A stretch of DNA of 64,000 nt from Escherichia coli (GCF_003334815.1 NZ_QOWO01000003.1), one strand, 5' to 3'. Shown: positions 39,257 through 39,826, numbered from the stretch's first letter. Notes: generated by a model from the sequence alone, not told the origin. Numbers and translations are program-made.

Positions 39257-39826
39257 GTGTGAACCCTCGCGATAATCCTATTTAAATTTTTGCTGAATAG
39301 ATCACAGTCACGTTCTGTTTTGTATGAACTGTTTTCAGAGCCTGACTAAATATCCGTTTGGTCGTTACCGGCTTTAGCAAATACCTCACAGTGAATATTG
39401 GCTGATTAAAGCAGCGGCAAATTTATGCACTGTGATAAGCGGCTTTTTCAGAGAGAAAGACTCTCTGGCGATGGGTTTATAGTTTGTACTGCGCAGATGT
39501 TAATGTTTTGTTTGCTGTTATCTTATTGATATTTATCGGTCTATTTTTTGTTCTCAGGGCAGATGTCATTAGGTTTATAGATTAATCTGATCTACCCATT
39601 TGTGGGTAAAAATACACATAATGCGGGTGACATAATAGTTAATTAACTTTTGTTAGCGTTTTGAAATTAAAAACACCGTTCACCTGAAGAGATATTAATT
39701 TTTAGCGATGATGGAGGGATAATTATATTTGATCTGGCACAAGTTTTACTGATGAAGGATGTAACTTGTGCCAGGGGTATTTTGCATTACGGTAATAATT
39801 ATTACTTACAGATAACCAGCGATCCG
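39257..39826 (-). promoter_or_regulatory. long AT-rich upstream control region of dcuB
   Basis: 570-bp non-coding, AT-rich region between dcuR stop and dcuB start; known from literature to carry DcuR/FNR/CRP/NarL inputs, but I did not resolve individual sites. Confidence 0.45.

Follow-up and report, generated by a model that had tools for sequence, protein, structure and literature searches.

The window analysed here is a stretch of 64,000 nucleotides of the Escherichia coli chromosome (GCF_003334815.1, NZ_QOWO01000003.1), and our subject is the 570-bp gap that separates dcuR from dcuB at positions 39257-39826. The minus-strand gene order (dcuS, dcuR, gap, dcuB, fumB) matches that of K-12, and 0 of the 570 positions of the gap differ from E. 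coli K-12 MG1655 (4348745-4349314). We argue that the gap is probably the regulatory region of dcuB, composed of upstream control DNA and a transcribed leader, with no separate gene inside it. In most respects the locus is ordinary and already known, its length being explained by a distal promoter followed by a long leader. The sole element not found in textbooks appears to be a conserved leader hairpin with an adjacent island that is a candidate anti-Shine-Dalgarno sequence, a modest lead towards a familiar kind of mechanism.

A first-pass annotation, made from the sequence without further searches, had singled this region out as an unusually long, AT-rich gap upstream of dcuB and free of open reading frames (ORFs) over 60 amino acids (aa). 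This description holds. NCBIfam models and identity with K-12 confirm the gene as dcuB, the GC content of the gap is 0.36 compared to 0.511 for the whole window (in 200-nt segments it ranges from 0.30 to 0.42 across the gap and is about 0.52 in the flanks), and no ORF of at least 60 aa lies inside it, the longest reaching 30-37 aa. The remark that most gaps are shorter than 300 bp is likewise borne out by strain 52F4, whose complete genome is the closest. Of the 48 gaps in its annotation this one, at 570 bp, is the longest; the median is 107.5 bp, and no more than eight exceed 300 bp. Identity and collinearity of that annotation with the window are limited to about 16.4-53 kb, the part for which the statistic is strictly valid.

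The gap region was found in 5415 of 5426 complete E. coli genomes, with only dcuR and dcuB annotated under the match. Among the 80 loci recovered when we scanned for DcuB in one genome per species, dcuR immediately precedes dcuB in five genera only, Escherichia, Salmonella, Citrobacter, Trabulsiella and Intestinirhabdus; something like an exception is provided by Edaphovirga, where a DcuR-like ORF (54% identical) also precedes dcuB. Since the gap is long in all five genera (552-910 bp, 31-45% GC), its length is a conserved trait and not the accident of a single strain. An alignment of 12 dcuR-dcuB gaps from these genera reveals near-perfectly conserved islands within otherwise quickly diverging sequence, and the FNR site, a 44-nt block, the -10 element, the long leader, the island and the Shine-Dalgarno (SD) block follow each other in the same order and at approximately the same spacing in all 25 loci that have dcuR upstream (Table 1).

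Table 1. Features of the dcuR-dcuB locus in window coordinates, listed in the direction of transcription (CDS, coding sequence; DcuR-P and other labels as in the text)
Feature	Position	Strand	Basis or remark
dcuS	40543-42174	-	NCBIfam and K-12 annotation
dcuR CDS, response regulator	39827-40546	-	NCBIfam equivalog NF007750, 503.6 bits; K-12 annotation
dcuR stop codon	39827-39829	-	Upstream border of the gap
Conserved block just 3' of dcuR	39781-39816	-	Invariant or near-invariant columns 11-46 of the 12-gap alignment
FNR site TTGTGccagATCAA	39729-39742	-	Centred 132.5 bp upstream of the distal start
AT-rich 44-nt block TGTTTTTAATTTCAAAACGCTAACAAAAGTTAATTAACTATTAT	39632-39675	-	Presumed DcuR-P site, -72 to -29 of the distal start
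Distal dcuB promoter core	39603-39614	-	-10 TATTTT at 39614-39609; +1 placed at ~39603
NarL 7-2-7 site TACCCACAAATGGGTA	39593-39608	-	Predicted; overlaps distal +1, nitrate repression
5' leader of the distal-promoter dcuB mRNA, 347 nt	39257-39603	-	A-rich; C exceeds G between +21 and +200
Island CCCAUCGC, leader nt 129-136	39468-39475	-	Invariant in most lineages; candidate anti-Shine-Dalgarno
7-bp hairpin CAGAGAG-ucuuu-CUCUCUG	39449-39467	-	Directly 3' of the island; covariation
CRP-like site TGTGATCTATTCAGCA	39291-39306	-	In a conserved block; three mismatches to the CRP consensus
Proximal mapped 5' end, -20 (RegulonDB 'p1')	39276	-	Golby 1998 via Mendoza-Vargas 2009 table
Shine-Dalgarno block GCGAGGG (-14 to -8)	39264-39270	-	TCGCGAGGGT nearly invariant across the clade
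dcuB start codon	39254-39256	-	
dcuB CDS, anaerobic fumarate transporter	37916-39256	-	NCBIfam NF009136, 760.8 bits; K-12 annotation
fumB	36192-37838	-	NCBIfam and K-12 annotation

The control DNA and the distal promoter

Evidence for a distal dcuB promoter comes from two independent data sets. The first is chromatin immunoprecipitation sequencing (ChIP-seq) of sigma70: Myers 2013 assigned to dcuB a peak at approximately 4,347,120 (v2), with a signal of 58.9 under aerobic and 290.6 under anaerobic conditions. This coordinate converts to position ~39609 of the window, which falls on the TATTTT hexamer contained in the conserved sequence TGTGTATTTTTA and is 333 bp away from the 5' end mapped at -20 (here and below, negative positions of mutations and of this end count from the dcuB start codon). 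We placed +1 at about 39603 because only then does the FNR site sit at -132.5, the position listed for dcuB in the same study. There, the ChIP-bound FNR site, identified with a position weight matrix, is given as TTGATCTGGCACAA at 4,347,240 (v2); the coordinate converts to 39729 and the sequence is exactly that of the site in Table 1, which retains 90% identity in genera other than Escherichia. A scan for consensus promoters on both strands of the gap returned nothing, the distal promoter being missed because it is activator-dependent.

The second data set consists of mutations selected in the gut. An A to T change at -354 (base 39610) converts the -10 element from TATTTT to TATTAT and is a textbook -10 up-mutation. 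Two IS2 insertions selected in the mouse gut map to -338 (39594, inside the NarL site) and -359 (39615), and a gut-selected IS5 insertion, which takes the island out of the transcript, to -123 (39379). According to the published gut-adaptation study, anaerobic dcuB mRNA was raised in the clone carrying IS2 at -338, and such insertions arose in half of the wild-type mouse populations. The dcuB gap is therefore a documented hotspot of adaptive regulatory mutation during colonisation of the mouse gut by E. coli, and placing the alleles on conserved elements turns them into a mechanistic account, with an up-mutation in the -10 element and IS2 in or next to the NarL operator.

The remaining elements of the control DNA are assigned with varying confidence. 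The 44-nt block is invariant in 12 of 12 aligned sequences from the five genera and present in 25 of 25 loci with dcuR upstream. We presume it to be the binding site of DcuR-P, drawing on this conservation and on the DcuR footprint at dcuB, which reportedly lies 27 bp upstream of a then newly found, DcuR-responsive +1; the position of the block at -72 to -29 agrees with such a footprint. The predicted NarL site has one mismatch to TACYYMTNNAKRRGTA and is centred at +2.5, and degenerate 7-2-7 versions of it persist in other genera. Judging from its sequence, the conserved block adjacent to dcuR could be a second DcuR site or the site of another factor; it includes the palindrome GTAATAATTATTAC (39792-39805) some 180-215 bp upstream of the distal dcuB start. 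We note in passing that the block starts with TTATCT, as does the DcuR footprint at LEE1 (TTATCTCACATAATTTAT, PMC10636207). A perfect 12-nt inverted repeat (CTGGCACAAGTT/AACTTGTGCCAG, 39734-39774, 17-nt spacer), limited to Escherichia (E. coli and E. albertii), overlaps the FNR site with its proximal arm. As a terminator of dcuR/dcuSR or of a small RNA (sRNA) we rejected it, given the absence of a U tract on the dcuR strand, the overlap with the FNR site and the restriction to one genus.

That several regulators are integrated here, as the first-pass annotation supposed, is thus supported by FNR and sigma70 peaks inside the gap. It also agrees with one figure legend (PMC5094792, S1 Fig), which, following EcoCyc annotation, carries labels for DcuR-P, NarL-P, FNR, CRP and others across the regions it depicts, dcuB among them. 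Read in order, some 223 bp of upstream DNA would comprise the dcuR-adjacent block, the FNR site, the presumed DcuR-P block, a weak -10 element and a NarL operator over +1, an arrangement that would let the distal promoter fire only without oxygen (FNR), with C4-dicarboxylates (DcuS-DcuR) and without nitrate (NarL).

A junction in E. coli strain S7 (NZ_CP107128.1) cuts the gap within the leader, at the equivalent of ~39527: there the dcuR side stops and runs up against a truncated lambdoid gpFI and a tail gene cluster, and there is a second match elsewhere in the record. A prophage-associated rearrangement has thus split the distal promoter from dcuB.

A conserved hairpin and island in the leader

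Control DNA of ~223 bp and a transcribed leader of ~347 nt together account for the length of the gap. The leader is more than unconstrained spacer. Folded over 377 nt, the E. coli sequence reaches -75.9 kcal/mol (z = -2.74), better than all 100 shuffles, and its poorly conserved middle contains a sole invariant island of the alignment, CCCATCGCC (39475-39467), whose distance to the ATG is nearly constant at 205-220 nt in most species.

Immediately 3' of the island lies a 7-bp hairpin that is under clear structural selection. Across 25 distinct sequences 90.9% of its cells are paired and five of the seven pairs have changed on both sides, such double changes having arisen in at least five lineages. 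Its covariation scores 0.376 compared to 0.231+-0.025 in shuffles, with none of 500 shuffles reaching either the score or the percentage paired, and when the hairpin is slid to control positions only 34-65% of cells are paired. Moreover, its many G.U pairs fit the dcuB-sense strand only. Compensatory change together with strand-specific G.U pairing points to an RNA helix, as opposed to a DNA palindrome recognised by a protein or an antisense RNA, and we consider the hairpin a conserved structured RNA element.

This bears on one alternative, namely that island and hairpin form a DNA-level site for a transcription factor or nucleoid protein. In its favour, regulators crowd this AT-rich gap, and an invariant CCCATCGCC beside an inverted repeat does look like an operator. 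However, the arms of the repeat change and yet stay complementary in the lineages just counted, and where they form G.T pairs they are complementary on the dcuB-sense strand alone, the pattern expected of an RNA helix. We regard a DNA-level site as very improbable.

A covariance model of island plus hairpin detects the element nowhere else in the 64-kb window and in no dcuB locus of 32 other genera or species, so that the element is specific to the dcuB locus and to this clade. A literature search turned up no mention of the island, the hairpin or the SD complementarity of the dcuB leader, and the reported post-transcriptional control of the operon (RyhB, SdhX) concerns the dcuB-fumB spacer, not the dcuB leader. 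The leader has so far been treated as spacer; nonetheless it holds a structurally selected hairpin and an island that is complementary both to the SD block and to the loop of the sRNA FnrS. Should these prove functional, they would add a post-transcriptional layer to a gene that serves as a model of two-component and FNR regulation.

Leaders differ between genera in further respects. In Salmonella, Citrobacter and Trabulsiella the segment from +1 to the island is 40-170 nt longer than in Escherichia and carries a 5'-proximal hairpin, GUCUGG-N6-CCAGAC, with compensatory variants; most of these leaders also have a second hairpin (GUAGCAAUGGAG..CAUGCUAC), absent from Escherichia. In Edaphovirga and Serratia proteamaculans a stretch resembling the 44-nt block (TGTGATC...CCCTCAATGAAAATGAAAAGAAGTTAATTATTAG) is found only 50-90 nt upstream of dcuB, and these loci lack the island and use GAGG as an ordinary ribosome site. 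Their organisation makes the long leader look like an innovation of the Escherichia-Salmonella-Citrobacter clade.

Possible masking of the ribosome-binding site and its alternatives

What might the island pair with? The SD block is conserved well past the usual GAGG, and CCCAUCGC can form 7 bp with GCGAGGG some 200 nt downstream (39270-39264), with one bulged A and at -10.7 kcal/mol. No other 9-nt window of the leader complements the SD block as well as the island does, and only 0.3-0.8% of random 9-mers equal it. The helix is part of both the minimum free energy structure and the centroid of the 377-nt E. coli leader, has a probability of at least 0.5 (mostly above 0.8) in 12 of 14 species whose leaders (311-574 nt) were folded independently, and is included in the RNAalifold consensus of 20 sequences, where the lone change is G-C to G.U. 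In full leaders the probability that the SD block is unpaired is 0.00-0.06 in 13 of the 14 species, the remaining one being Citrobacter sp. NCU1 at 0.43, whereas it is 0.11-0.67 in a transcript starting at -20.

On the strength of these folds we tentatively suggest, as something a little short of an even call, that island-SD pairing covers the dcuB ribosome-binding site when the transcript is full length. In such a fold CCCAUCGC would stack on the neighbouring hairpin and pair with GCGAGGG. Translation would then require that the helix be opened or the leader cut, and cutting of this kind might have produced the -20 end. A possible, though doubtful, extension is that the distal dcuB mRNA is riboregulated, with island and covarying hairpin acting as a cis operator and the mask being lifted anaerobically by pairing with FnrS or by an endonuclease that removes the leader and leaves the -20 end. 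If so, FNR would control DcuB at the transcriptional and the translational level.

Several observations weigh against the masking model and the promoter scheme upstream of it. Both strands of the island-SD helix are near-invariant, leaving it almost without support from covariation. The SD block departs from its consensus by a G-C to G.U change in Escherichia sp. E1V33 and by GGG to GGA in three metagenome contigs resembling S. enterica, and a metagenome scan anchored on the presumed DcuR-site block, which returned 28 contigs, revealed no compensatory change in the helix and one, at its terminal pair, that was uncompensated. In the three contigs with GCGAGGA the helix probability falls to 0.04-0.15, although a shifted register costs no more than 0.5 kcal/mol and the SD block is still mostly paired. 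The island is degenerate in two Citrobacter species (GCCAUCGC, GCCAUCAC), the probability of the helix is close to 0 in the Citrobacter NCU1 leader, which has a degenerate island, and it is 0.2 in one Citrobacter-like contig. Elsewhere the island is invariant even where the SD block has changed, which hints at conservation for another partner. Keep in mind, too, that thermodynamic folds of RNAs of 350-570 nt are unreliable and ignore co-transcriptional folding and ribosomes, and that the distal +1 and the DcuR footprint were placed via secondary sources, an abstract and sequence.

There are a number of other scenarios that might explain the long leader and its conserved parts. The one that survives best, although we think it unlikely, is that the leader is simply a substrate for processing or premature termination, so that the -20 end is a cleavage product or Rho terminates transcription in the C-rich, untranslated first 200 nt. 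The table of Mendoza-Vargas 2009 lists a known transcription start site at -20 (Golby 1998) and a DMTSS at -19. We see no good or conserved -10 sequence upstream of this end in the motif and alignment data, as would be the case for a processed end, and the sole anaerobically induced sigma70 ChIP peak listed for dcuB is that of the distal promoter. The GG/AUU at -20 also fits RN/WUU, which we take to be the motif of RNase E. Rho, for its part, would find a C/G ratio of 1.7-2.4 (78-nt windows) between +21 and +200 of the leader, and with the first 200 nt rich in C and poor in G, Rho-dependent attenuation is conceivable. As to how the -20 end was mapped, primer extension and the directed mapping of Mendoza-Vargas 2009, as we understand them, do not tell primary from processed ends. 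On the other side, the resolution of ChIP-seq and the significance threshold of the table leave room for a weak proximal promoter, which the CRP-like site near the -20 end could serve. The centre of that site is 22.5 bp from the -20 end and 42.5 bp from the ATG, on the upstream side of both, a geometry ill-suited to activating a promoter at -20; in other genera it reads TGTGATCCATTTATCA, at 68% identity.

A second scenario takes up the hint of another partner. Island and hairpin could dock a trans-acting RNA, the candidate being the FNR-induced sRNA FnrS, whose pairing would free the SD block by an anti-antisense mechanism and close an FNR feed-forward loop on DcuB synthesis. FnrS (MG1655 1409129-1409250) contains GCGAUGGG, a perfect 8-nt complement of the island. 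It lies in the first stem-loop (AAGCGAUGgg), and in Rfam RF01796 the loop is represented as AAGCGAUG, where upper case marks conserved, unpaired positions. Predicting a duplex between full-length FnrS and the leader gave meaningless long duplexes and was discarded in favour of a scan that combines hybridisation with accessibility. By this measure FnrS has its best site in the nascent leader at the island (-7.65 kcal/mol), and of 300 dinucleotide shuffles of FnrS 11 did as well anywhere (p ~0.04) and one at the island (p ~0.003). Pairing with FnrS would also be in keeping with an island that is unchanged where the SD block has drifted, and more than one interaction site has been reported for FnrS (PMC3495738). 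Against this, the match is only 8 bp long, and two of the G residues involved sit in closing pairs of the FnrS stem. FnrS was the one sRNA compared with the island, but with about 100 sRNAs in E. coli some 8-mer match is not rare, and we put the expected number at ~0.3. The literature search found no link between FnrS and dcuB. To our knowledge the FnrS targets described so far are all repressed; dcuB would be the first that it activates, as far as is known. All told, we consider FnrS docking quite improbable.

The third scenario was raised by the first-pass annotation, which noted that the length of the gap would accommodate an sRNA or a short leader peptide. There is room in 570 bp, six ORFs of 30-37 aa are present, and so is the perfect 12-bp inverted repeat at 39734-39774. 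Against a gene, no Rfam family matches the gap, whether that of E. coli (E<=1) or its counterparts in the four genera Salmonella, Citrobacter, Trabulsiella and Intestinirhabdus (E<=0.1); the lone match at these loci, which we dismissed, is a spurious lncRNA inside the dcuB CDS and outside the gap. Neither strand of the gap has a consensus promoter or a terminator-like hairpin followed by a U tract, and the inverted repeat, besides lacking such a tract, is confined to Escherichia and shares bases with the FNR site. K-12 RefSeq annotates nothing in the gap, although elsewhere it includes small proteins and sRNAs that were validated recently (ynaN, ynaL, fnrS). With no Rfam aptamer match in the five genera and no terminator in the gap, we see no riboswitch either.

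For a leader peptide, we compared the 22 E. coli ORFs of at least 8 aa in the gap with eight other species and found none conserved in frame, length or start. Peptide matches are short translations of conserved DNA blocks with differing ORF boundaries, and the ORFs of 30-37 aa lack SD sequences and already fail to be conserved in E. albertii, where the sense ORFs of 30 and 35 aa are disrupted or changed. An ORF antisense to the island (MISGFFREKDSLAMGL) was rejected because its boundaries are not conserved and its substitutions, like changes across the hairpin region generally, are not 3-periodic. An independent sRNA on either strand or an attenuating leader peptide is thus barely credible, and the notion of a separate gene in the gap is left without support.

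Some differently organised loci and regions were seen along the way. The DcuB-like gene of Klebsiella, Raoultella and Enterobacter shares 94% identity across residues 15-446, but its N-terminus (MEF...) differs; the DNA upstream of it is rich in GC, dcuR does not occur within 3 kb, and the gene represents a differently wired copy. Within the window, the second longest gap (557 bp), that between yjdM and yjdN at 16353-16909, is unusually GC-rich (0.59). Collinearity with strain 52F4 ends near it, at ~16.4 kb, and again beyond ~53 kb; past the latter break 52F4 has an island with an integrase and an antitoxin, which the large ORFs of the window in that stretch do not match.

Relation to known systems

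With trpL/pheL-type attenuators and with sRNAs derived from 5' untranslated regions (UTRs) the dcuB gap shares a long region between promoter and gene. Unlike them, it has no conserved small ORF, no terminator/antiterminator pair and no U tract after any hairpin.

The rpoS leader offers a parallel. It is activated by the sRNAs DsrA, RprA and ArcZ through an anti-antisense mechanism and protection from Rho. As in rpoS, the dcuB leader is long and has an upstream segment that pairs, in the case of dcuB by prediction, with the region where translation starts. By analogy, an sRNA complementary to the upstream segment could open the structure, and the C-rich leader fits the loading of Rho. In contrast to rpoS, the sRNA partner of dcuB, FnrS, is an 8-nt sequence match only.

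Another parallel is E. coli adhE, whose long 5' UTR reportedly hides the ribosome site until it is cut by RNase III. Both genes are anaerobic and both have a 5' UTR of ~300 nt, a predicted long-range pairing over the SD block and a second 5' end near the start codon. The predicted dcuB helix, however, is short, 7 bp with a bulge, and not the long duplex typical of RNase III substrates.

The nearest comparison of all is the dcuB-fumB region of E. coli K-12 as curated in EcoCyc and RegulonDB (Golby 1998, Abo-Amer 2004, Myers 2013). The DNA is identical, and the FNR site, the sigma70 peak, the -20 start and the regulators involved (FNR, DcuR, NarL and CRP) are all shared. To this curated picture of dcuB, on DNA that is no different, we add the leader island, the hairpin and the complementarity to the SD block.

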